This document shows positions 3,667 through 18,308 of a stretch of DNA of 44,087 nt, piece after piece. Below the pieces are notes generated by a model that made no database searches, was not told the DNA's origin, and saw only the letters and a program-made list of their open reading frames with translations. Positions within the stretch are counted from its first letter, which is position 1, and each line of letters starts with the position of its first letter. Origin of the DNA: a virus (lineage: Duplodnaviria > Heunggongvirae > Uroviricota > Caudoviricetes); IMG/VR virus record IMGVR_UViG_2541047944_000002, positions 1-44,087 of that record. One strand, given 5' to 3'. Made by a program: the position numbers and the translations under genes.

Positions 3667-6600
3667 TCAGATGCTCAGTGCTTCAAGACGACGAAGATCA
3701 AAGTCGTTTAATTCGTCGGTATAACTTTCGGTAATCGGTGCTGGCCAGTTGTTTGTCTCCAGCGCTTCGTTTATCTGGTGTAGCGTCCGGCGATATTCCT
3801 GTCGACCAAGTTCAAGGAGTTCCTGCGAGGCTTCCACGACTGCCACCCAGTGATAGCCAGCATCTTTGTTGACGAAGATCCAGAAAAATTTGTCCAGGTT
3901 TGCCACATCGCAATACATTGCGGCGCTGAGGTGATAATCACGCTCAATAATTTCACGGTGCAGGCGATCTTTAAGTCGTTCCTGCCGCACATAACCGAGG
4001 CTGACTGACTTCACGTCAGCGCAAATGCTTTCGTATGGCAGCCGGATTTCGATATCAGGACGGACCCTGATTTCCAGCCCGGTTTCTTCATCAAACCCGA
4101 AATAGCTGATTTCAGATTTGCGATCCGGGTGGTTGAGTAGCCTTGCTGCATCGGTATTGTTTTGCAGTGCCGCGTGAATATTTTTTGCCTGTTCATACAT
4201 ATCCGGACTGATAAACGTTTTCCCGGCGTTTTCTTCTTGCTGGCGTTTTTGCCAGTCCTCCAGTGTCACCAGTTCCGGGCGAATTTTCCGTGCGATTTCG
4301 GTTAATTGCTCTTTTGTGCCACTGATGTTGTAAGGCAAAGATTTAGCACGTTCTTTTTTTGCCAGTTCTGGATCTACAGTTTCAATTTGATCCAGAAGCT
4401 GCTCCCGTGCTCCACTGGTTTTCAACAGAGGAGGGAGGCTTGCGTTGTATTCTTTAATACAGGCTTTCATTGCTGATGCTGTGTGTTTTTCCCCCTCAGG
4501 AATACGCCGAAATTCCACCGGAAGCGAACCGTAAAGGATGCCTGTTTCTTCGGCCCCAGCACTTACAGACAGTGGCTGTATAAGAGTGCTGTTGTAGCTT
4601 TCGATCCACTCTTTCATCTGCTCTGGTGTCATCAGTGCTGGCAGACTGGCATTGTGTTTTTTAATGATGGCGATCAGTTCGTTAGAAGTAGTAACCACAT
4701 ATTCAGGAACCGGTACCGGAATGGCATATTCATCAGCGAATTTATCCGTTTCCAGAACATAGCTGTGAATGATCCGCCCACGCAGCAGTGCATCACTTTC
4801 CTCGTTCGGAATAGTTCCGGCAATGTGCCGCCCGTGGTAATACATCAGGCTGATACGGGCATCCTTCAGCATCGTGCTGCTTATTCCGTTGGCGGAGTGA
4901 TAAACCTCGTTCGGGAGGTTTTCATAGCGGCCTGGCTCGAAATATGACGGCCACATGATTTCAGTTGCTACAGGAGCTGACGCTTCGCCAGTTTCATCAC
5001 TGCAATTGCGATGCGGATCGCTGTCAGCATTCTCATTGTGCGGATGTTCAGCGCCTTCCATTTTCTCCGGCTCATTTTCCCGAACTTCAACCTGATTCTC
5101 GTCATCGAATGTTTCCTGATATGTTGCGTCGCCCATCACCGCACCACAGTCAGGGCAGTTATCCCCGCCAGACTGACCGCAGGCATTGCAAACTTTTTCC
5201 ACTTCCTGTTGCGCCACTGGTTCAGGCTGTTTCGTTTCTGGCTCGTTTTGTAACGCATTTGGGCTGTTTTGTTCCGCTTTCTGGTCGTTCTGTTCCGATT
5301 CTTGTTGGTTCTGGTTCACTGAATCGCGGGTTTCAATCCCCTTCACCCATTTCGGATCATTCGGGTCGCTAATCCCCTCAACAAATTCTCCGCGAGAGGC
5401 AGCCAGCAATTTGTCGGCATCGACAGGATTTTTGGGCGGAATGGTTTTCCGGGCTTCATGAAGTTCTGCCCGCAGTTTCTGATATTTCGCATCAACAGAA
5501 TTTACCTGTGACTGAGCATCCAGCGGCTGCGTGTCCTGATGATGTTCAGTTGCATCCGGTTCCACTGTTTCAGCCGTTGCCTGTTCATCTGCCATTGCGC
5601 AAGATGGTTGCGGTTTTTCTTCATCATCCTGTTTTTCTTCTTCTGTTACCCGCTGCGGCATCGGGGCAGAGGAGCGACCGCAGGCAATATCCACGATTTC
5701 CGGATCAGGGTTGGCATGATCGGTTTCAGTCAGTACTTTGTTCAGATATTCAGTGACGTGTGCGGGGATAACCTCGATCCCAATTGGTGCTTCTTTTACG
5801 GACGCAACCACGATGGCGCGGGAATAATCCAGCCCGCCAGGCATGGCGATGAATTTGTCGCGGAAAACAGAAAAGGGCGGTTTATTTTCAGCGATAATTT
5901 CCTCGACACGTTTAGCGTGTGCCGGATGAAGGTTATAAATGTCCACGTCCATTGAACGGGCCAGTACGCCAGTGGCTACATCGCGTGCCAGTGACGTCAG
6001 ATCGTGGACGAAACCTTCGCCGCGATCGGTGAGGTTCCCGCCGCCAGCATTAGCACCGGAAGCCGTGCGAGTGATGCGTGAAACACGATTTCCTTTCATC
6101 CACTCTTTTGTCAGCAGACCGCGATCGGTGTAGTCTGCGTCCAGGTATGCTTCGAAAAAAGCAGTCATCAGCCCCAGACTTGAATTGCCTGGATTAGGGA
6201 AAACTTTGTCAGTATCACGAACCAGTCTGTGAAGATCGCGAATCTCCAGCAGGTCGAGCAGGCTGGTTTTGTGGGAAACAGCCAGGGCAGTAACAGCTGG
6301 TAGTTCTTCAGCCCGTGCAATATGTAATGTCTGGAGTTCGTCGCGTGAAACGTGCGTTACCGGTTTTTCGCTGCCGTGTTGAGCAAGCCAGCGAATGGGC
6401 AGCTCTTGGCCAGAAATCGGGAGTAGCATATTCTCCTCAATCTCAGTCATGTCTTCGCCATTAACATTGGTATTGTCAGTGCTGGCTGGTTTGTCCTGCG
6501 CAGAGGATGAGGGCGCGATAAATACCATTGTGATGCCATCTTCCCCGCCTTTTTCGTAACGGTTGCAGAATTCCGTATCAAATACGCCTTCTGGTGGAAG

Positions 6601-8348: not shown

Positions 8349-8537
8349 ATATCCTGCACGGCCTTCTGCTTTGTAGAAGGCTTCTTCGCTATCATAATCG
8401 CCAGATTCCAGTGCTTCTTTAGCCAGCCAGATGCGTGCCCCTGTGCCTGCATTTGGCTCCAGTTGCTGGAGGCGTTTTGCATCTTCCAGGAGTAGAGCGA
8501 TAACGTGTTTTAATTCTGTCTCGTTCATTTTACTCAC
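8325..8537 (-). CDS. Hypothetical small protein (Rac YdaF-like position)
   Basis: Small ORF downstream of the repressor gene on the same strand; name by position only. Confidence 0.4.
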   Translation of the reverse strand: MSKMNETELKHVIALLLEDAKRLQQLEPNAGTGARIWLAKEALESGDYDSEEAFYKAEGRAGYSPGLGGV

Positions 8538-8748
8538 CTGAATGTCTTCCCAACCAACGACGTGCGCCAGCTTCGGTTTTAAACGTTTTGCTTTTGGTAT
8601 ACGTCATGGCGGTGAATGTGCCGTCCTGATTGGGAAACACGCCACATACCAGAGATTCGTTGTTGCCAAGATCGATAGTATCCATGTTGACCTCATTTCC
8701 CCTTAACGCCGGGTGGCGGAACGTTTTATCTACTGCGCTTTGTATCAA
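8530..8748 (-). CDS. Hypothetical small protein (Rac YdaG-like position)
   Basis: Small ORF overlapping the previous one by 8 nt on the same strand. Confidence 0.4.
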   Translation of the reverse strand: MIQSAVDKTFRHPALRGNEVNMDTIDLGNNESLVCGVFPNQDGTFTAMTYTKSKTFKTEAGARRWLGRHSGE

Positions 8749-8937
8749 TCAACAACTGCCGTCATGTTCGTATGCCTCAGGCTGGCTACTTAGCCCTGTT
8801 CAGTGGCTGGATAACTCGAGGTATTGTCCTGCCGTTCTCTGGTGGGGCGTTGTTTGGATATGCTTATTAAACACAATGCGTTTTCTTATGTCAACACGAA
8901 ATGTGTTTTGCGGTGAGTGTCATATGATGATGGTACA

Positions 8938-8963
8938 AAAAAGCCCGCTGATAGCGGGCTGAT
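8938..8963 (-). terminator. Intrinsic terminator downstream of the repressor gene
   Basis: Minus strand reads agcccgc-tatca-gcgggct followed by tttttt. Confidence 0.55.
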
Positions 8964-8990
8964 TGGCATATTACTGTGATAGCAAGATCA

Positions 8991-9410
8991 TTACTCCGGT
9001 GGGGGATTATCTTTAAGCCTGCCTCTCAAATATTTTTCTACATACTCATCGATTTCTTTTAGCCGGACTTCAAATAGCTCAATCATTCGTTGTTGTTCTG
9101 AGCCCGGTAGCTGGTTAAACAACTCAAGAAGTTTTCGTTGGGATTCATTTAACCACAATTCAGAAGATTCCTGTTCTCCAAAGAGGAGCTCAGGGGGAGA
9201 TATGCCAAGTGCCTTTCCCAATACGACAGCGTCATGCACTCCAACATTTCTGCTGCCCGCCTCATAGTTACCTATACGCGATTGCGTCCATCCGCAGATT
9301 TCAGCAAGTTTTCCTTGAGATAAACCAAGCTTCTGCCTGCGCTCTTTAAGACGCATTGCAATTTTGTCATTGAGCCTACTAGCGGCAATTTTTTCGTTTT
9401 CTTTTTCCAT
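8991..9410 (-). CDS. Phage repressor, HTH XRE family (cI/RacR-like)
   Basis: HTH motif (LGLSQGKLAEICGWTQSRIGNYE); divergent from a Cro-like gene across an operator-bearing intergenic region. Confidence 0.8.
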   Translation of the reverse strand: MEKENEKIAASRLNDKIAMRLKERRQKLGLSQGKLAEICGWTQSRIGNYEAGSRNVGVHDAVVLGKALGISPPELLFGEQESSELWLNESQRKLLELFNQLPGSEQQRMIELFEVRLKEIDEYVEKYLRGRLKDNPPPE

Positions 9411-10245: not shown

Positions 10246-11034
10246 ATGGCTTCAAACTGGATAAAGCTCGAGGTTATTACGCCGGATAAGCCGGAAATAT
10301 TCAGGCTTGCTGAGATTCTGAATATTGATCCAGATGCCGCATTAGGGAAGGTTATTCGCTTCTGGGCATGGGCGGATCAACAAATGATAGACGGTAATGC
10401 AGATTGTAACGCTCGCGGCGTTACAAAAAGTGCAATAGACCGCATCACTTTTATGGCTGGTTTTGCTGATGCGTTAATTCAGGTTGGATGGCTGGTCGAA
10501 AATGACGGTGGGCTTTCTCTACCTAACTTTGAACGTCATAACGGAAAAAGCTCTAAAAAACGGGCGGTTACAAACGAGCGAGTTACAAAAATACGCGAAC
10601 TGAAACGAAAAGGTAACGCTGGCAGCGTTACACAAACGGATCAAAAAGCGTTACCAGAGGAAGAGGAAGAGGAAGATATAAATACTGATCTCCCCCTAAA
10701 TCCCCCTCGCCAAAAACGAGCGTCTAAAAAATTCGAGCCGGAGGCTATCGAGCTGCCTGACTGGTTGCCGGAAACACTCTGGCATGAGTGGGTTAAGTTC
10801 AGGCAGGCATTGCGAAAACCGATTCGAACGGAGCAGGGCGCTAACGGGGCGATACGGGAGCTGGAAAAATTCCGTCAGCAGGGTTTTACACCTGAGCAGG
10901 TGATTCGACACAGCATCGCCAATGAATACCAGGGCCTGTTCGCGCCGAAAGGTGTTCGGCCTGAGACGTTGCTCCGACAGGTTAACACTGTCTCGTTGCC
11001 GGACAGTGCGATCCCGCCAGGCTTCAGGGGGTAA
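10246..11034 (+). CDS. Replication initiator, lambda O-like / DUF1376 (YdaU-like)
   Basis: Position upstream of the DnaC-like loader; contains internal iteron repeats (see repeat feature). Confidence 0.6.
   Translation: MASNWIKLEVITPDKPEIFRLAEILNIDPDAALGKVIRFWAWADQQMIDGNADCNARGVTKSAIDRITFMAGFADALIQVGWLVENDGGLSLPNFERHNGKSSKKRAVTNERVTKIRELKRKGNAGSVTQTDQKALPEEEEEEDINTDLPLNPPRQKRASKKFEPEAIELPDWLPETLWHEWVKFRQALRKPIRTEQGANGAIRELEKFRQQGFTPEQVIRHSIANEYQGLFAPKGVRPETLLRQVNTVSLPDSAIPPGFRG
10405..10634. repeat. Putative replication origin iterons (GTAACGC-N5-GCGTTAC dyads and GTTACAAA repeats)
   Basis: tgtaacgctcgcggcgttaca (10405..10425), gttacaaa x2 (10567..10591), gtaacgctggcagcgttaca (10613..10632), plus one upstream copy at 10211..10231; followed by a GAA-rich then AT-rich stretch. 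Confidence 0.55.
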
Positions 11035-11040
11035 CGGACC

Positions 11041-11787
11041 ATGAAAAATATTGCGACAGGCGGCGTTCTGGAACGCATCCGCCGACTGACCCCGCCACAT
11101 GTAACCGCCCCATTCAGAACGGTAGCGGAGTGGCGCGAGTGGCAACTTGCTGAAGGCCAGAAACGTTGTGAGGAGATCAACCGTCAGAATCGTCAGTTGC
11201 GGGTGGAAAAAATTCTGAATCGTTCAGGCATCCAGCCGTTGCACCGTAAATGCTCATTTGCGAATTACCAGGTGCAGAACGACGGCCAGCGATACGCGTT
11301 AAGCCAGGCGAAATCCATCGCCGATGAACTGATGACCGGGTGTACAAATTTTGCGTTCAGCGGAAAACCTGGTACCGGGAAGAATCACTTAGCGGCAGCT
11401 ATCGGGAATCGCCTGCTGAAAGACGGTCAGACAGTGATTGTGGTTACCGTGGCTGATGTTATGAGCGCCCTGCACGCCAGCTATGACGACGGGCAGTCAG
11501 GCGAAAAATTTTTGCGGGAGCTGTGCGAAGTGGATCTGCTGGTTCTTGATGAAATTGGCATTCAGCGCGAGACGAAAAACGAGCAGGTGGTGCTGCACCA
11601 GATTGTTGATCGCCGGACAGCGTCGATGCGCAGCGTGGGGATGCTGACAAACCTGAACTATGAGGCCATGAAAACATTGCTCGGCGAGCGGATTATGGAT
11701 CGCATGACCATGAACGGCGGGCGATGGGTGAATTTTAACTGGGAGAGCTGGCGTCCGAATGTCGTCCAGCCAGGAATTGCGAAGTGA
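11041..11787 (+). CDS. DnaC-like helicase loader / IstB-like AAA+ ATPase (YdaV-like)
   Basis: Walker A ([15 protein letters not shown]) and Walker B (DLLVLDEIG) motifs; follows the initiator gene. Confidence 0.8.
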
Positions 11788-11809
11788 TTTTTACCGGGAG
11801 GAAATTTTA

Positions 11810-12571
11810 ATGGAGACTGTTTTTGACGCACTGAAAGCGATGGGAAAAGCCACGTCGGTAGAGCTGGCTGCGCGACTTGATATCAGTCGTGAAGAAGTAC
11901 TGAACGAGCTGTGGGAACTGAAAAAGGCTGGCTTCGTTGATAAAAGCGTATACACCTGGCGTGTGGCTGATAACAACGTTCAGCAGGAACAGCCAGCGCC
12001 AGAAGAACAGCCGGAAGAAACCACCACGGCGACAGTAGCGAAAATCTCAGAGTGCGATTTAACCGCGACGATTGAACAACGCGGACCACAAACGGCGGAT
12101 GAACTGGCTACGCTGTTCGGTACAACATCCCGCAAAGTGGCTTCAACGCTGGCAATGGCAATCAGCAAAGGTCGTCTGATTCGCGTAAATCAGGGCGGTA
12201 AATTTCGTTACTGCATACCGGGCGATAATTTACCAGCAGAGCCGAAAGCTGCATCGGTAGCGGAAACTGATGGTAAAGCCTTTCCTCAGCCTGCATGTGT
12301 TGCGTTACCAGTACAGGAGGCTGCAACACAGGAAGATATTAAAACAGAAACTGTGGCGGACATTGTGCAGTCGCTGCCATCGTTCACCGAAACGCGAGCG
12401 GATGACCTGATTTTACCATCGCTGCATATGGCAAACCGCGAACTGCGTCGGGCGAAAAGTCATGTCCAGAAGTGGGCGCGAGTCTGCGCCGCGCTGCGGG
12501 AGCTGAACAAGCACCGGGATATTGTTCGACAGATTACTGATTCTTCCCGCCGTGTTGTATCGGAAAAGTGA
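11810..12571 (+). CDS. Hypothetical protein with winged-helix-like repeats
   Basis: ORF from internal Met with GGGAGG RBS ([13 protein letters not shown]...); two related segments ([26 protein letters not shown] / [27 protein letters not shown]). Confidence 0.5.
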
Positions 12572-12586
12572 TTGCCGGAGGCACTT

Positions 12587-13009
12587 ATGGCAAAAGTATT
12601 TACACAAGAAGAGCGGGAAAAAATTAAAGGGCAGGTTGTTGAGCTAGTACGCCGGAGTGGGCGCGAGACGTTACGGCAACTGGAAGCCAAGACAGGTGCG
12701 ACAAGATATCTGATGAGCGTTCTCGCCAGAGAGCTTGTTGCCAGTGGCGATGTATATAACTCCGGCTACGGGTTATTCCCGTCAGAACAGGCTCGTAAGG
12801 ACTGGCAAAATGCCCGCAAAAAACTATCCAGGGCAAAGGTGAAGAAACCATCTGTGGTTGATCCTGACCTTATCTGGTCATTACCTGACGGAGAAATACG
12901 TCGCTACGACAGGAGTATGAACATAATCTGTCACGAGTGCCGGAAGAGTGAGGTTATGCAGCGTGTACTGGCTTTCTATCAGGGTAATTTTCAGGAGGCG
13001 GTACTGTGA
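12587..13009 (+). CDS. Hypothetical protein
   Basis: ORF with GGAGG RBS; no recognisable family. Confidence 0.5.
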   Translation: MAKVFTQEEREKIKGQVVELVRRSGRETLRQLEAKTGATRYLMSVLARELVASGDVYNSGYGLFPSEQARKDWQNARKKLSRAKVKKPSVVDPDLIWSLPDGEIRRYDRSMNIICHECRKSEVMQRVLAFYQGNFQEAVL

Positions 13010-13066
13010 GTGAAATTAGCTATCAGGCTTCAATTACCGCTGGCATTCGCATCAAAGGAGAGGAGC

Positions 13067-13423
13067 ATGGAAATAAAACCAGAAGATGAGTTAAGCAATA
13101 TCGTTTTATTTCCGGTAAAAGAGGATGACCCTCGTAATCAGGTTAATTTTCTTTATGAGCCATCGGAAAGACCATATTGCCATCACGCTTCTGTCCGGGT
13201 TGACGAAAAAGAGCGTCAGGTCCGCTGTAAAATCTGCGGTGCAGTTGTGGAGCCATTTGACTGGATGCTCTCTGTGGCGAAAAGAGAAACCAGACTGGCA
13301 GATGATGTAAGGCTATTGCGCCAGGAGGAACAGGAAAGACGGAAAAATATAGAAAAGTTAATTCAGATTGAGCGTAACGCGAAAGCGCGGATACGCAGGG
13401 TGACAAAATCCAGAACTGAATAA
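13067..13423 (+). CDS. Hypothetical protein with CxxC...CxxC zinc-ribbon-like motif
   Basis: ATG 5 nt after the conserved junction motif; CHHASVRV...CKICGAV. Confidence 0.5.
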   Translation: MEIKPEDELSNIVLFPVKEDDPRNQVNFLYEPSERPYCHHASVRVDEKERQVRCKICGAVVEPFDWMLSVAKRETRLADDVRLLRQEEQERRKNIEKLIQIERNAKARIRRVTKSRTE

Positions 13424-13518
13424 TTAAATTTAGCACTGTTAAAAATTCGATCCTTAACCGGAGGGATTTCTGCACCCTCAGAACATCAGGAGGCCGCCCG
13501 AAAGGGCGGTAACAAATA

Positions 13519-13995
13519 ATGCAAGAAATCAAAGAAAATATCAGGCAACAGCTTTACGGGTTTTATATTGCTTATGATTTGTGGCTGAAGAACGGGGCGA
13601 AACCCGGCGGAGTGTTTTCTCAAAATTATGGTTTATGCGCCAATCTTTTCGATTATCTCACATTAATTGGTACCCCCTGTGAGGCAGCGCTGGAGCAATT
13701 ACACGCTGATTTCAGAAGTGCCGGGCTGAATGAGGCGTTGCCGTTTAACGAGGGTAAAGAGCATTACCATGAAGAAAGAGGGCACAACATGTGCCATATG
13801 AATCCGGCACGAGTGGCGTGGGTCAGGGCGCAGACAGGGCAGCCAGCGCCGGAAGGACTGATTAAAGCGGTGCGTTTTTATGAGCAGGTAAAACGTGAGA
13901 ACCCGCCAGTCGAAACAGGAGCATGGAAAGACGCTGTTGACTGGGTGCTCAAAGAGGCTTGCCAGGCTGTAAACATTCGCATCAAAGGAGAGTGA
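13519..13995 (+). CDS. Hypothetical protein
   Basis: 158-aa ORF; unusual SD-hairpin-AUG leader; ends in IRIKGE encoded by the junction motif. Confidence 0.55.
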   Translation: MQEIKENIRQQLYGFYIAYDLWLKNGAKPGGVFSQNYGLCANLFDYLTLIGTPCEAALEQLHADFRSAGLNEALPFNEGKEHYHEERGHNMCHMNPARVAWVRAQTGQPAPEGLIKAVRFYEQVKRENPPVETGAWKDAVDWVLKEACQAVNIRIKGE

Positions 13996-13996
13996 G

Positions 13997-14489
13997 AATG
14001 CAAATTTCACCGGTTACTCTTCGTGTTGCGAAGGCGTTTATATCCAGACATCACCGACACAATAAACCCCCGGTGGGGCATAAATTCAGCATTGGTCTGA
14101 GAAATGATGCCGGAGAATTGATAGGTGTGGCGACAGCCGGTCGACCTGTTGCACGACATTTGGACGATGGATTAACGCTTGAAGTAAATCGCACATGTAC
14201 CACAGGAGAACGCAACGCTAACAGCGCGCTTTATGGTGCTGTCTGGCGGGCAGCAAAGGCTATGGGTTATCAACGTTGTATTACGTACACCCAGGCAGAT
14301 GAATCAGGAGCATCTCTTCGCGCAGCTGGTTTTGTTCGTGTGAAAGAGCTTCCTCCAAGAAAAAGCTGGGCGGAATCAAGCGTCGCCCTGCGGAGTAAAC
14401 GCGATCCGGTCGGAAACGGTGGTGTTCCTCGTGTGCTCTGGGAAATCAGGAGAATGAGTACCACTGGCATTCGCATCAAAGGAGAGTGA
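13997..14489 (+). CDS. Hypothetical protein, possibly GNAT-like acyltransferase fold
   Basis: ATG after junction motif; C-terminal half has a GNAT-like pattern (ALYGAVWRAAKAMGYQRCITYTQADESGASLRAAGFVRV). Weak, from memory. Confidence 0.45.
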
Positions 14490-14490
14490 T

Positions 14491-14754
14491 ATGGCAACTT
14501 TGACAAAAAAGGAACAGGCATGGTTGAGCGAATTACAGAACGTTCTTGATCGCTGCCCGTCACCGAAAAAAATTGGTTTTTACACCATTGGCGATAAAAA
14601 CATTTACCTGTATGACCTACGCCGCATGGATGAAATCATGGAGGCTCTTGATAATCGTTCGTCAATGGATTGGTGTGTTGCTGTCCATGATATGAATGCC
14701 GGATTTGAAGAAAAGATTTTGTTCCCCTCATCAGTTGAAAGCACTGCGGGTTAA
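14491..14754 (+). CDS. Hypothetical protein
   Basis: 87-aa ORF directly after the third junction-motif copy. Confidence 0.5.
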   Translation: MATLTKKEQAWLSELQNVLDRCPSPKKIGFYTIGDKNIYLYDLRRMDEIMEALDNRSSMDWCVAVHDMNAGFEEKILFPSSVESTAG

Positions 14755-14764
14755 GGAGTAACAC

Positions 14765-15589
14765 ATGACCAGTATTACCAAAGAACGTATTGAATTGTTC
14801 ATTAAAAATCCGCTTGAAAACGGGCTTGCCCGTGGCGAACAAATGGAACTGGCGCAGATTGCACTGGCCTCACTGGCAGCAGAGCCGGTGGCGTGGAAGG
14901 CAACCTTCACGCAAATTGACCATGAATATAATACGTTCACCGCTATGTATTCTGACAAAGCAGAAGTCGAACGGTGGGTGCGACTGCATAAAGTAGGTGA
15001 TTTTCGGGCAAAAATAACACCACTTTATGCATCATCGCCAGCGCTGGTAGTGCCTGATAAGTTGCCGCGTGAATACATAAGAGGTTGGCCTCTTGCGTAT
15101 AGTGATTATGCTGAAGGATGGAACGATTGCCGCGAAGCCATGCTTCAGTCAGGAAACTTTCGGGAAAACAAGGATTCGTCAACCAATAATTTTCGGGAAA
15201 TTTCGGAAACGTCAACCAACTCTCCGCTAATTCCTGGTGAAGTGTTGTCCGCAATCCGGGAGGTTGCCAGGATTCGTGCCGATTTCGATGATTTTGACGG
15301 TGACAGGCGAGGTGTTGGTGATTGTCTGGATGAGGCCGAGCAAGAGCTTATCGTTACCATTAACAAATATGCCAGTCAGTTGGCAGTAGAGCCGGTAGTA
15401 CCTGATGACGTTCTGGAACAGACAGTAGCGTCGCCAGTGCCAGGTAACCAGGTTAGCGAATTAACAATGTGGGTTAAGCGTCTGGCTCACTCCTTAAAGT
15501 ACGCCAATAGTTTAAGCAGCTTGCCTGATAAGGCGATGGAATATCTGAAGCAGAACGGGTTGGTAGGTGTGGAGGATATTTTACGATGA
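14765..15589 (+). CDS. Hypothetical protein
   Basis: 274-aa ORF with AAGGAG RBS; contains an internal imperfect tandem repeat (15158..15219). Confidence 0.55.
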   Translation: MTSITKERIELFIKNPLENGLARGEQMELAQIALASLAAEPVAWKATFTQIDHEYNTFTAMYSDKAEVERWVRLHKVGDFRAKITPLYASSPALVVPDKLPREYIRGWPLAYSDYAEGWNDCREAMLQSGNFRENKDSSTNNFREISETSTNSPLIPGEVLSAIREVARIRADFDDFDGDRRGVGDCLDEAEQELIVTINKYASQLAVEPVVPDDVLEQTVASPVPGNQVSELTMWVKRLAHSLKYANSLSSLPDKAMEYLKQNGLVGVEDILR

Positions 15590-15669
15590 CCTGGCCTGAA
15601 GCATTCGCAACGGTAGGAATGGTGATGGCGGTGGCGCTGGTGGTGTATTCGATTTGCCGCTGGGGATAA
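15586..15669 (+). CDS. Putative 27-aa hydrophobic peptide, translationally coupled
   Basis: ATGA overlap with the upstream stop; MTWPEAFATVGMVMAVALVVYSICRWG is one predicted transmembrane helix. Below ORF-track cutoff. Confidence 0.3.
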   Translation: MTWPEAFATVGMVMAVALVVYSICRWG

Positions 15670-15784
15670 AAACGGTTTGCGGGAAAAGGAGAGTTAAGTA
15701 GAATTGCTGCGGGTGCTTGAGGCTATCTGCCTCAGGCATGAACACCAAAAGGCAGATAGAGAAAAGCCCCAGTTAACATTACGC

Positions 15785-15850
15785 GTCCGGCAAGACGCTT
15801 AACATTAATCTGAGGCTCAATCTATGAACGGCAAATCTAGGTTAGCCTCT
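15785..15850 (-). ncRNA. sok: Putative Sok-like antisense RNA (approximate coordinates)
   Basis: Inferred from hok/mok organisation: antisense partner expected opposite the mok start/SD region; candidate minus-strand TTGCCT-17-TAACCT promoter just right of it. Not directly verifiable by eye. Confidence 0.3.
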
Positions 15851-16036
15851 TACGCGCCGAAAGGCAAGGAGAAGCAGGCTATGAAGCAGCAAAAGGCGAT
15901 GTTAGTCGCCCTGATCGTCATCTGTATTACCGTCATAGTGACGGCACTGGTAACGAGGAAAGACCTCTGCGAGGTACGAATCCGAACCGGCCAGACGGAG
16001 GTCGCTGTCTTCACAGCTTACGAACCTGAGGAGTAA
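15824..16036 (+). CDS. mok: Mok-like in-frame leader ORF of the hok locus
   Basis: 70-codon ORF sharing frame and stop with hok, as for mokC/hokC in K-12 (recalled). Confidence 0.5.
   Translation: MNGKSRLASYAPKGKEKQAMKQQKAMLVALIVICITVIVTALVTRKDLCEVRIRTGQTEVAVFTAYEPEE
15881..16036 (+). CDS. hok: Hok/Gef-family type I toxin
   Basis: MKQQKAMLVALIVICITVIVTALVTRKDLCEVRIRTGQTEVAVFTAYEPEE: 51 aa, single TM helix, near match to recalled HokC/Gef. Confidence 0.8.
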   Translation: MKQQKAMLVALIVICITVIVTALVTRKDLCEVRIRTGQTEVAVFTAYEPEE

Positions 16037-16106
16037 GAGACCCGGCGGGGGAGAAATCCCTCGCCACCTCTGATGTGTCAGGCATCCTCAACGCACCCGC
16101 ACTTAA

Positions 16107-16126
16107 CCCGCTTCGGCGGGTTTTTT
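16107..16126 (+). terminator. Intrinsic terminator of the hok transcript
   Basis: cccgc-ttcg-gcggg followed by tttttt. Confidence 0.6.
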
Positions 16127-16311
16127 GTTGCGCGCTGAATACGCAGGGTGAAAAATAACCATATATTTGATTATATACACAACAAAAAATAAAAGTCATT
16201 GCACCTGCACATTAAATAATCAAATATACGACGTGAAATAAATATTTTTCAGATTAATATTTTTGTCTCTATGTGGATATAACCGTTTGTACTTATAAAC
16301 CTGGAGGCATC

Positions 16312-16524
16312 GTGGAAAAAATAAAGAAACTATTTAGTAGCAAATATGCAGTCATACGTCGTGATGACCTGTCAGTTATAGTCGAAATGGATTACTTCCC
16401 TGAAACCAAAAAATCAATGATGTATCGTAATGGTCGAAAGGCAATTTTTTTACCGATGAGGGTAAGTGACATTATGGGAAATGATAAACTGCTGGATGAA
16501 TTGCGAGTCAGAGCATCCTGTTAG
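16312..16524 (+). CDS. Hypothetical small protein in an AT-rich island
   Basis: GTG start 5 nt after GGAGG; ~130 bp of AT-rich sequence upstream (16140..16270). Start codon uncertain. Confidence 0.4.
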   Translation: MEKIKKLFSSKYAVIRRDDLSVIVEMDYFPETKKSMMYRNGRKAIFLPMRVSDIMGNDKLLDELRVRASC

Positions 16525-16595
16525 TATTGGCATTAATTCTGGTATACTACATAACGGGCTGAACACCCATTCTACTGCGCCAGCGGAGAACTACG

Positions 16596-17195
16596 ATGGC
16601 GCATATACAACTGGTCAAACAAACCTCTTCTGGATTACTTCTCCCGGCGACGCCGGAGAGTTGCGATTTTTTGCATCAAATCAAAATAGGTGAGTGGATA
16701 CACGCGGACTTTAAGCGAGTGCGTAACTACGCGTTCCACAAGCGTTTTTTCAAACTCCTGCAACTGGGATTCGATTACTGGACTCCGAACGGTGGGGCGA
16801 TCACGCCTCGCGAACGAGAACTGGTGTCCGGTTTCGTTGAGTATCTGTGCGAATCAGTTGGTCGGGAACACACTCCAGCCCTGAGCGAAGCCGCAGAGCA
16901 ATATCTGAATGCCGTTGCGACACGCAGAACCCGGGATACGGCATTGCTAAAGTCGTTTGACGCTTTCCGCGAGTGGGTAACCATTCAGGCAGGATTTTAC
17001 ACCGAGCATATTTATCCTGATGGTAGTCGTGGGCGCAGGGCAAAATCTATCGCATTTGCGAATATGGACGAAACCGAGTTTCAGCAGGTTTATAAAGCCG
17101 TACTGAATGTGCTGTGGAACTGGATCCTGTTCCGTAAATTCTCCTCTCCGGAGGAAGTCGAAAATGTGGCCGCGCAGCTGCTGGAGTTTGCGTAA
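16596..17195 (+). CDS. YbcN-like protein (DUF1367)
   Basis: 199-aa ORF recalled as resembling DLP12 YbcN; conserved position upstream of Q in lambdoid prophages. Confidence 0.6.
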   Translation: MAHIQLVKQTSSGLLLPATPESCDFLHQIKIGEWIHADFKRVRNYAFHKRFFKLLQLGFDYWTPNGGAITPRERELVSGFVEYLCESVGREHTPALSEAAEQYLNAVATRRTRDTALLKSFDAFREWVTIQAGFYTEHIYPDGSRGRRAKSIAFANMDETEFQQVYKAVLNVLWNWILFRKFSSPEEVENVAAQLLEFA

Positions 17196-17485
17196 TGGTG
17201 GATTTACGTAAAGCGGCAAAAGGTCAGATGTGTACAGTCAGAATTCCTGGCTACTGCAATCACAATCCCGAAACGTCCGTGCTGGCGCATTACAGGCTGG
17301 CGGGGACGTGTGGAACAGCGACAAAACCACACGATATGCAGGCAGCGATTGCCTGCAGCTCATGCCACGATTTAATCGACGGGCGGGTAAAAACCAGCGA
17401 TTACACCAAAGAAGAATTACGCCTGATGCATGCAGAAGGTGTTTTTCGCACACAAGAAATCTGGAGAAAGGAAGGTTATTTATGA
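17195..17485 (+). CDS. YbcO-like putative nuclease (DUF1364)
   Basis: Cys/His-rich 96-aa ORF (CTVRIPGYCNHNPETSVLAHY...CSSCHD) recalled as resembling DLP12 YbcO. Confidence 0.6.
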   Translation: MVDLRKAAKGQMCTVRIPGYCNHNPETSVLAHYRLAGTCGTATKPHDMQAAIACSSCHDLIDGRVKTSDYTKEELRLMHAEGVFRTQEIWRKEGYL

Positions 17486-18036
17486 TTTACCCAACAAATA
17501 CAGGCAAAAGCGGGGAACACCTTCGTCTCACCACGCTGGAAAGTGTCTGGATTCAGGGAAAACTGCGCATGTGGGGGCGCTGGTCATATATTGGCGGCGG
17601 TAAGACGGGAAATATGTTTAACCAGTTGCTGACCTCTAAAAAGCTGACAAAAACGGCAATTAACGAGGCGCTCCGGAGGATGAAAAAAGCAGGTCTGGAC
17701 AAACCTGAACTTGAGGCTTTTTTGCGGGATATGATCAACGGCAAGCAAAAAACCTGGCTGGTGCATTGTACTGATGCAGAGGCGTTATGCATTGATCGGG
17801 TGATTAGTGAAGTGCTGGCAGAACACCCAGGATTGATTTGTATCCTCCGGCAACGATATGAAGGGAGAGGGATGACTAAGCGAAAAATGGCTGAATTGCT
17901 GAATGACGCACACCCTGAGTGGTGTTTCCGGACGTGCTGCAGTCGGGTAGATGTATGGCTAAATCTTGCTGAATATATGCTCTATCTGCCGATGCGTGAT
18001 GCATTCTCTTCCGGGGATCTAAAAACCGTTTGTTGA
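17482..18036 (+). CDS. Late-gene antiterminator Q
   Basis: ATG at 17482 (MIYPTNTGKSG...), ATGA overlap with ybcO-like stop; immediately followed by a strong promoter and short terminated leader. Confidence 0.6.
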   Translation: MIYPTNTGKSGEHLRLTTLESVWIQGKLRMWGRWSYIGGGKTGNMFNQLLTSKKLTKTAINEALRRMKKAGLDKPELEAFLRDMINGKQKTWLVHCTDAEALCIDRVISEVLAEHPGLICILRQRYEGRGMTKRKMAELLNDAHPEWCFRTCCSRVDVWLNLAEYMLYLPMRDAFSSGDLKTVC

Positions 18037-18062
18037 CTCAATCTGTTATCCGGGGCTATATT
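18033..18062 (+). promoter_or_regulatory. Late promoter PR-prime (TTGACT-18-TATATT) with qut-like leader
   Basis: -35 TTGACT overlaps the Q stop codon; -10 TATATT 18 bp downstream; two hairpins in the leader. Confidence 0.5.
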
Positions 18063-18124
18063 CCTCACGCGCCAGCAAAATCTGGCGTCGGGATTGGCGT
18101 CCCGGATGTTTACGGAGCGATATG

Positions 18125-18146
18125 AGACGCGCCCGCGTCTTTTTTC
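18125..18146 (+). terminator. tR-prime-like intrinsic terminator
   Basis: agacgcg-cc-cgcgtct followed by tttttt, about 65 nt downstream of the promoter. Confidence 0.55.
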
Positions 18147-18308
18147 ATATCGTTTGCACAGTCACATTCGCGATTTATGGCGGGCTGTGTGGGGGAGCCG
18201 AAAGGCTCGCCGGTTTCCGTACCCGGTTACGCCAACCCTGCACAGTTCGCCACCAGTTCGATTGGCGTCGTCGGTGGCGATAATTTCCAAATGTACGGAG
18301 TTATCGTT

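Follow-up and report, generated by a model that had tools for sequence, protein, structure and literature searches.

What kind of genetic unit is the run of small genes at positions 12587-15669 of the virus record IMGVR_UViG_2541047944_000002? The record, a Caudoviricetes sequence of 44,087 nucleotides, was analysed over its full length and is called the window in this work. Seven co-directional open reading frames (ORFs) are packed there, between replication genes (YdaU-like, DnaC-like and DUF1627) on the left and hok on the right, which equals the ren/nin position of phage lambda. A preliminary description of this DNA had seen in the block a candidate undescribed module, at a place where lambdoid phages have accessory, anti-defence or defence cargo, and had noted a motif repeated at three of its gene junctions. 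Our analysis makes another answer quite probable, namely that the block is an accessory and variable part of the early rightward operon, made of an array of single-gene and sub-gene cassettes which were acquired independently, and that it contains no co-evolved module. Taken as a module the block is of no import, being a typical mosaic accessory stretch. What it offers is a clean and quantifiable case of a conserved gene-boundary sequence, composed of the 3' end of Ead/Ea22-type genes and a Shine-Dalgarno sequence, which would act as a socket for cassettes and coincides with breakpoints of homology. This bears on the old debate whether recombination in phage mosaicism is targeted to linkers or illegitimate.

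The distribution of the genes does not fit a unit which is present or absent as a whole, as the preliminary description had it. In a megablast comparison with 5,426 complete E. coli genomes, counting matches with at least 80% coverage, the whole block was present in seven genomes, and the prevalences of its members differ widely, from 3964 genomes for the DUF977 gene down to ten for the full-length 274-aa gene (Table 1). Among the 298 matching phage records none covered 80% or more of the block. Neighbourhood is conserved in part: the DUF977 and 118-aa genes are adjacent in 1098 of the 1679 genomes carrying the 118-aa gene, and the tightest pair, the XF1762 and 87-aa genes, is adjacent in 84 of 154. 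Many different gene combinations are found among 121 viral loci. The expectation that this lambdoid position holds variable, non-core cargo is supported by these data.

The motif at the three junctions could be confirmed and defined. The 44-kb window has exactly three copies of the 18-bp sequence ATTCGCATCAAAGGAGAG, located at 13045, 13975 and 14469, against 0.05 expected by chance, and three copies were reached in none of 100 shuffles. Two of the three copies are identical over 23 bp, and every copy ends 4-5 nt 5' of an ATG. The motif is composed of a ATTCGCATC part plus AAGGAG, which is the Shine-Dalgarno sequence. In the copies at 13975 and 14469 the frame of the upstream gene encodes I-R-I-K-G-E followed by TGA, while the copy at 13045 is surrounded by a remnant 27-aa ORF (13006-13089) which reads ..ITAGIRIKGE.. 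and would represent what is left of the end of an upstream gene of the ...AGIRIKGE type. The motif is the last 18-23 nt of Ead/Ea22-type genes (...G-I-R-I-K-G-E, usually with the stop at once) joined to an AAGGAG located 7-8 nt before the next start.

Exact matches to the motif are present in at least 120 viral contigs of IMG/VR. The ORFs flanking it, one ending in the motif and one starting after it, were clustered at 35% identity and 60% coverage with the shared tail excluded, and for 129 occurrences the protein clusters numbered at least 13 on the upstream side and at least 15 on the downstream side, joined in 43 combinations. The most frequent family 5' of the motif is Pfam Ead_Ea22, and the genes 3' of it include the 118-aa gene, the 87-aa gene, a ClpX-zinc-finger protein and several families without a Pfam match. 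In 25 cases the motif lies inside a short remnant ORF just 5' of the 118-aa gene, as it does at 13045, and an upstream gene that was lost appears to have left this remnant as a scar. Cassettes following the motif in other phages comprise a 251-aa ORF (MIHYHGGPITPD...; IMG/VR locus L064) and a 171-aa ORF, both without a Pfam match, as well as a protein of 107 aa which has a C4 zinc finger of the ClpX type.

Breakpoints of homology were taken as the ends of megablast high-scoring segment pairs between positions 11000-17500 of the window and the viral loci. On the three copies of the motif fall 50 such ends, that is 19 left ends at 13030-13040 (copy 1), 16 right ends at 13960-13990 (copy 2) and 15 left ends at 14460-14480 (copy 3). 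Homology ends also pile up at 12570 and 13000, the edges of the DUF977 gene; 38 right ends are found at 13510-13520, just past a GC-rich hairpin, 22 ends at 13840-13850, inside the 158-aa gene, and 30 right ends at 14870-14890, with further edges at 15520, 15660 and 16120. The hairpin, located in a region whose predicted RNA fold (13415-13530) has a free energy of -30.2 kcal/mol (z -2.85), marks the right edge of the cassette of the 118-aa gene. The boundaries of the mosaic lie on the motif and on a small number of further short conserved sequences, part of which are internal to ORFs. A pattern of this kind is expected under the "conserved boundary sequence" model of lambdoid mosaicism, in which such sequences are targets of recombination (Susskind & Botstein 1978 and Clark et al. 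2001, both as cited in PMC3233612).

The 30 ends at 14870-14890 fall on the first copy of a second linker, TGGCAG(C/T)AGAGCCGGT, which encodes LA(A/V)EPV and is present twice inside the 274-aa ORF (14874-14889 and 15381-15396), so recombination boundaries are found also at domain junctions inside ORFs. The 274-aa protein, named "Eaa protein" in GenBank, consists of three parts, with an N-terminus matching phrog_5117, a middle part matching phrog_14306 (DUF551-like) and a C-terminus matching phrog_660/924. A similar composition is seen in the 158-aa protein, whose N-terminal part belongs to phrog_6418/2510 and whose residues from about 90 to 157 belong to phrog_660, ending in an Ead-type ...NIRIKGE; in a 317-aa relative the same N-terminal part is fused to a DUF551-type C-terminus. 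The 158-aa protein is thus a chimera as well. In E. coli UMEA 3585-1 both the 158-aa and the 274-aa protein have counterparts of 100% identity. The 274-aa ORF holds a 33-nt tandem duplication (15155-15219) detected by a repeat search, while Tandem Repeats Finder reported no repeat in the block. The NCBI annotation pipeline PGAP splits this intact ORF (14765-15589; 8366-9190 of locus L001) into two pseudogene fragments, annotated as a hypothetical protein and a DUF551 protein, and the cause of this is probably the chimeric joining of pieces from different families.

Since each cassette has a distribution of its own, the breakpoints lie at the edges of cassettes and the motif stands between many gene pairs, the block has the features of an ordinary mosaic and not of one module. 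The shared junction motif does not serve as the mark of a module, because as a boundary sequence it stands between unrelated genes of many kinds in numerous phages; it is a hallmark of mosaicism and not of common function. The tight packing and the mostly translational coupling noted in the preliminary description are borne out, the gaps between the seven ORFs being, in order, 57, 95, 2, 1 and 10 nt, with a 4-nt ATGA overlap at the last junction. A simple scan of the + strand gave no promoter-like site 5' of 15264, and the first terminator-like site with four or more G-C pairs was the hok terminator, so the block is apparently transcribed by read-through from the early promoter. Such read-through would express whichever cassettes are present, and the cargo would act in lytic growth or upon induction rather than in the lysogen. 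The spacing of AAGGAG and the stop located 1-2 nt before the next ATG would allow an incoming downstream gene to be translated by termination-reinitiation coupling. The boundary sequence would offer a short shared target for homologous recombination, by host RecA or phage RecET/Red, and lambdoid phages, whether co-infecting or resident, would exchange their cassettes singly and in register. Scars of such swapping may be seen in the orphan remnant 5' of the gene at 13067 and in the IRIKGE tails with which the XF1762 and 158-aa proteins end.

The block is similar to the mosaic accessory regions of other lambdoid phages (HK620, the ren-nin region of lambda and the ea/nin regions of P22) in its position right after the replication genes, in its small, non-core, co-directional and packed genes, in having its edges at gene or domain boundaries, and in the short junction sequence between unrelated neighbours. 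In distinction to the lambda nin region, none of NinB to NinI lies inside it, and in distinction to lambda and P22 the cargo at this site is of the Ead/Ea22/Eaa/DUF551 type. Lambda and P22 carry genes of this type mainly in the early-left region.

The component of the block which merits experimental follow-up is the 163-aa protein encoded at 13998. The weak GNAT pattern first seen in it was right and can be sharpened to membership in the XF1762 family, with a GNAT fold closest to that of Mom of phage Mu. The protein matches NCBIfam XF1762 (NF045478) with an E value of 5e-61 and 204.7 bits against a cutoff of 50 (profile positions 2-130 of 143), and RefSeq gives the same name to a 98%-identical orthologue. 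It matches phrog_1384, "Mom-like DNA modification protein" (E 4.4e-42), the PHROG which also contains Mu Mom. Against Pfam Mom (PF25680) it scores 22.4 bits, below the gathering cutoff of 27.1; this family is matched by 28 of 40 XF1762 relatives at E <=0.01 (best 1.4e-7), and no other Pfam family was matched. An AlphaFold2 model built with an alignment of 40 diverse members has GNAT topology with a pLDDT (predicted local distance difference test) of 89.8. In the Foldseek search of the PDB its top match is Mu Mom (8bv8, Mom S124A; E 1.4e-7) with the highest template modelling score (0.69-0.71), and many ordinary acetyltransferases rank just behind. Direct sequence similarity to Mu Mom is negligible (BLASTP E 0.25; 2.6 bits for the XF1762 profile against Mom; hhalign probability 1.8%), so the link is based on structure and on the profiles of Pfam and PHROG.

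Mom transfers glycine from Gly-tRNA(Gly) to the N6 of adenine in double-stranded DNA, and this activity gives restriction evasion (Silva et al. 2026, PMC13219725). In the same work R111, S124 and R151 are essential, H58, Y59, W48, Y159 and W181 are important, and deletion of the helix-turn-helix (HTH)-like insertion between beta6 and beta7 (residues 175-209) abolishes activity (PMC13219725). Among the 40 diverse XF1762 members R20, P50, R65, G90 and G104 are invariant, and H19, H21, the G48-R49-P50 motif, R53, E62, N73, S76, Y91, E102, W124 and W148 are near-invariant, with S76 conserved in at least 90%. R65 is aligned with Mom R111 by both BLASTP and hhalign, S76 with S124 by hhalign, and H19 with H58, in an alignment which is remote and has a low hhalign probability against a single-sequence template. 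The two proteins have in common these three residues, the GNAT fold, PHROG 1384, a very basic character (isoelectric point, pI, 10.9 for the XF1762 protein) and, by eye, an RN-x-x-S loop in place of the canonical acetyl-CoA pyrophosphate-binding motif; W124 may correspond, also by eye, to Mom W181. The differences are considerable. Mom has 231-241 aa as against 163 here, and of the 245 positions of the PHROG 1384 profile Mom covers 7-218 and the XF1762 protein 21-159. The HTH-like insertion is replaced by a 26-residue loop (119-144, pLDDT 62-66) with two 3-residue helical turns. In a manual alignment outside the hhalign stretch Y59 corresponds to the invariant R20 of this family and the essential R151 falls on a variable S/P/T position (S103), and there is no Com-like regulator here. 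From sequence and model we conclude that the XF1762 protein is a predicted nucleic-acid-directed GNAT related to Mom, and not Mom in the strict sense. It would transfer an acyl or aminoacyl group to nucleic acid, plausibly as an anti-restriction function. A wider proposal, which we regard as rather unlikely, is that the family constitutes a second, widespread class of compact nucleic-acid-modifying enzymes dependent on acyl or aminoacyl (tRNA) donors, here a swappable cassette which would mark phage DNA, or host RNA or DNA, in lytic growth to evade restriction or other defence.

The XF1762 family is large, with 5663 clusters at 90% identity and 3313 at 50%, and as a minimal relative of Mom it could help to define the parts of Mom needed for charged-tRNA DNA chemistry. 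Relatives with 50-60% identity are found in Amycolatopsis, Streptomyces and other Actinomycetota (loci L126-L203, with the match at about 4001-4435); between an E. coli prophage and this phylum such identity is unusually high. Around 80 relatives in other genomes no universal partner gene was found, the top neighbour cluster being present in 27 in a count made noisy by spurious high-GC ORFs. An N6_N4_Mtase-like (DNA-methylase-like) ORF is located 0.6-1.5 kb 5' of the relative in about 15 of the 80 loci. In Intestinirhabdus alba an 85%-identical XF1762 gene follows an Ead-like gene ending in ..GIGKGE and is followed by a different gene. The protein of the window carries an 11-aa tail, ..STTGIRIKGE, which appears to have been acquired from the boundary sequence. 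No papers turned up under the name XF1762.

The 87-aa protein encoded next is acidic (pI 4.8) and belongs to phrog_1714. Its family is found in Enterobacterales only, as 140 clusters all named "hypothetical", and has the invariant signature CPSP.K.G..T...YD.R. The model of the protein (pLDDT 82.7) gave no fold match.

The proposal that the seven genes work jointly as a single operon and constitute a new system of defence or anti-defence draws on their tight, co-directional and partly coupled arrangement, on a region known for accessory cargo, and on the presence of the entire block at 96-98% identity in seven E. coli genomes. We consider it highly improbable, however, given that the prevalences are wildly different and the complete block is rare, that the same genes are found in other arrays with other neighbours, that two members are chimeric with breakpoints inside their ORFs, and that the scan detected no internal promoter for expression in the lysogen. 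A known anti-phage defence system is not indicated either, as no PADLOC-DB v2 defence profile matched any of the seven proteins at E <=0.01; weak generic winged-HTH matches in this database concern only the neighbouring DUF1627 protein. A smaller unit could be formed by the XF1762 gene and the 87-aa gene coupled to it, the latter encoding a cofactor, a specificity factor or a regulator of the Mom-like enzyme, or the antidote of a GNAT toxin. The gap between the two genes is 1 nt (TGAtATG), the 87-aa gene is present in nine of nine XF1762-bearing viral loci, the pair is kept in strain 203740 within an otherwise different array, after DUF7167 and other small genes, and the two proteins are of opposite charge. 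Mu Mom is toxic, and it depends on a dedicated regulator, Com, which is annotated as a translational regulator of Mom. Against such a unit stand the adjacency in 84 of the 154 XF1762-bearing E. coli genomes, the 978 genomes with the 87-aa gene, most of which are without XF1762, the restriction of the 87-aa gene to Enterobacterales as compared to an XF1762 family that extends across phyla including Actinomycetota, the other gene 3' of XF1762 in Intestinirhabdus, and the boundary motif and homology breakpoints between the two genes. In known GNAT toxin systems the antitoxin is encoded upstream, which counts against a toxin-antidote pair. A TacT/AtaT-type toxin-antitoxin pair was rejected because there is no obligate adjacent antidote, the 87-aa gene being absent beside relatives in other genera and phyla. 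On balance we think it unlikely that the two genes form a functional unit.

It could also be argued that the main role of the repeated motif is regulation at the RNA level, as a binding site for a translational regulator or an RNase which coordinates the genes that follow, and not that of a linker for recombination. Its nucleotides are identical at the three junctions where the flanks differ, it contains a ribosome-binding site, and its near-variants alter the peptide about as often as they keep it, which hints at a constraint on the nucleic acid. But the motif has no Rfam family, in many phages it is followed by genes of at least 15 unrelated families, and the breakpoints located on it are predicted by the linker model and not by a pure regulator site. 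A mainly regulatory role is in our opinion very unlikely, and the linker and regulatory roles are not mutually exclusive. The interpretation of the block as an array of independent cassettes, which we prefer, has to take into account several points which weigh against it. The near-variants just mentioned, with non-synonymous changes as common as synonymous ones, come from loci retrieved by exact motif match, a biased sample from which conservation of the motif beyond the needs of peptide and Shine-Dalgarno sequence is not readable. Megablast needs about 85% identity or more and misses diverged alleles, and independence is in consequence somewhat overstated. The seven genomes with the whole block fit recent common descent and are compatible also with selection for the combination, and functional interaction between some neighbours would be compatible with independent assortment. 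Finally, recombination at the motif is deduced from the position of the breakpoints.

The other larger proteins of the block could also be assigned to families, in disagreement with the statement that, apart from two weak patterns, no recognisable family is present: besides XF1762 there is a strong match to DUF977, and all six larger proteins match PHROG families. The term "undescribed" does not hold, as family names exist for them in Pfam, NCBIfam, PHROG or GenBank, even if almost none of them has a tested function. A PDB sequence search with the 118-, 158-, 87-, 274- and 163-aa proteins gave no significant relative. The DUF977 protein (LygF, Ren-like) matches Pfam DUF977 (PF06163) over positions 1-134 of 134 (E 3.8e-31, 108.4 bits against a cutoff of 22.1) and phrog_142, "Ren-like exclusion protein" (E 1.6e-47). 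It shares with lambda Ren this PHROG and the C-terminal motif N-(I/L)-x-x-x-EC-R-(K/Q)-S-x-x-M-(Q/K)-RVLA-x-Y, with 55% identity over 22 aa (BLASTP E 1e-6), and it is like Ren in its place as the first gene after the replication genes in the order O-P-ren. Differences are the length (96 aa for Ren, 140 aa here), the BLASTP alignment, which includes only the C-terminal 22 residues, and the DUF1627 gene between the DnaC-like loader gene and the DUF977 gene. It is likely a Ren-type protein. The function of Ren-type proteins is resistance to Rex exclusion. No functional account turned up in the literature on LygF and DUF977. The 118-aa protein matches phrog_1621 (E 1.1e-55). Its residues C38-H39-H40 ... 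C54-x2-C57 form a putative pair of zinc-binding knuckles, and its tail is helical and basic/acidic. The zinc ribbon proposed for it has weak support, Zn_Ribbon_TF scoring 21.5 bits against a cutoff of 29.

The block ends, as had been described, in a coupled hydrophobic peptide of 27 aa, MTWPEAFATVGMVMAVALVVYSICRWG, with a grand average of hydropathy of +1.18. The ORF is intact in 29 of 32 related loci, its ATGA overlap is retained with 7 different upstream contexts, and its substitutions are conservative and hydrophobic (e.g. MNWPEAFTAVGVAIAVAFILYSLFRWG). No family match was found among the Pfam, PHROG and NCBIfam profiles. The conservation of this ORF, which is usually omitted by genome annotation, suggests that it probably encodes a genuine small membrane peptide. 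It is not annotated by PGAP in the prophage of E. coli CE0021a and is annotated in few GenBank genomes only. The ORF moves with the conserved C-terminal approximately 23 codons of Eaa-type genes (left edge 15520) and not with hok, whose homology edge at 15660 rules out that the peptide is part of the hok locus. A clustering of the peptide with 121-aa DUF551 proteins was discarded as an artefact, since the sequences share nothing. The type I toxin locus right after the block was correctly recognised: hok matches Pfam HOK_GEF (E 5.8e-24) and sok (15711-15886) its Rfam family with 112.8 bits. This locus is a bona fide member of the hok/sok type I toxin-antitoxin loci and, unlike the block, forms a separate cassette with homology edges of its own at 15660 and 16120, the 27-aa peptide lying outside.

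Table 1. Features of the block and its right flank, with the number of complete E. coli genomes (out of 5,426) carrying each gene.
Feature	Position	Strand	Description	Genomes
DUF977 gene	12587-13009	+	140 aa	3964
118-aa gene	13067-13423	+	118 aa	1679
158-aa gene	13519-13995	+	158 aa	full length 20, partial 763
XF1762 gene	13998-14489	+	163 aa	154
87-aa gene	14491-14754	+	87 aa	978
Eaa-type gene (274-aa gene)	14765-15589	+	274 aa	full length 10, partial 1884
Hydrophobic small ORF	15586-15669	+	27 aa	
Whole block	12587-15669	+	seven ORFs	7
Boundary motif copy 1	13035-13073 (core 13045-13062)	+	in 57-nt spacer; Shine-Dalgarno sequence for 13067 gene	
Boundary motif copy 2	13975-13992	+	IRIKGE, stop TGA 13993-13995; Shine-Dalgarno sequence for ATG 13998	
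Boundary motif copy 3	14469-14486	+	IRIKGE, stop TGA 14487-14489; Shine-Dalgarno sequence for ATG 14491	
GC-rich hairpin	13493-13510	+	CCGCCC-GAAA-GGGCGG; in 95-nt spacer, no T-run, 9 nt before 13519 start	
hok/mok/sok locus	15711-16122	+	mok 15824-16036, hok 15881-16036, terminator 16105-16122	

The window is a Rac-like lambdoid prophage of E. coli, and the block with its flanks aligns with E. coli chromosomes at 96-98% identity. In the 98%-identical annotated prophage of E. coli CE0021a the RefSeq gene order is recE - kilR - repressor/cro-like - YdaT - YdaU - ATP-binding (DnaC-like) - DUF1627 - DUF977 - ... - hokD - DUF1367 - DUF1364 - DUF1133 - lysis genes. The closest genome, NZ_CP119006.1, has the 3701-bp query spread over 3864 bp in two pieces, which implies an indel of about 163 bp. 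By the annotated coordinates this indel is located 3' of the 27-aa ORF and 5' of hok, at about 15670-15880 of the window.

Rfam matches within the window are RalA, RyeA/SdsR, sok and isrK/C4. RalA, the small RNA which serves as antitoxin in the type I system RalR/RalA of Rac, is located at 2168-2346 (219.6 bits). Close to the left end of the window, at 462-606, are the overlapping convergent small RNAs SraC/RyeA (- strand) and SdsR/RyeB (+ strand), a pair which may mark host DNA beside the end of the prophage. At 18056-18257, 5' of the late region, are found isrK, the C4 antisense RNA and its a1/b1 target elements, a set corresponding to the P1/P7-type antisense control module which occurs in some Stx (Shiga toxin) and lambdoid prophages.

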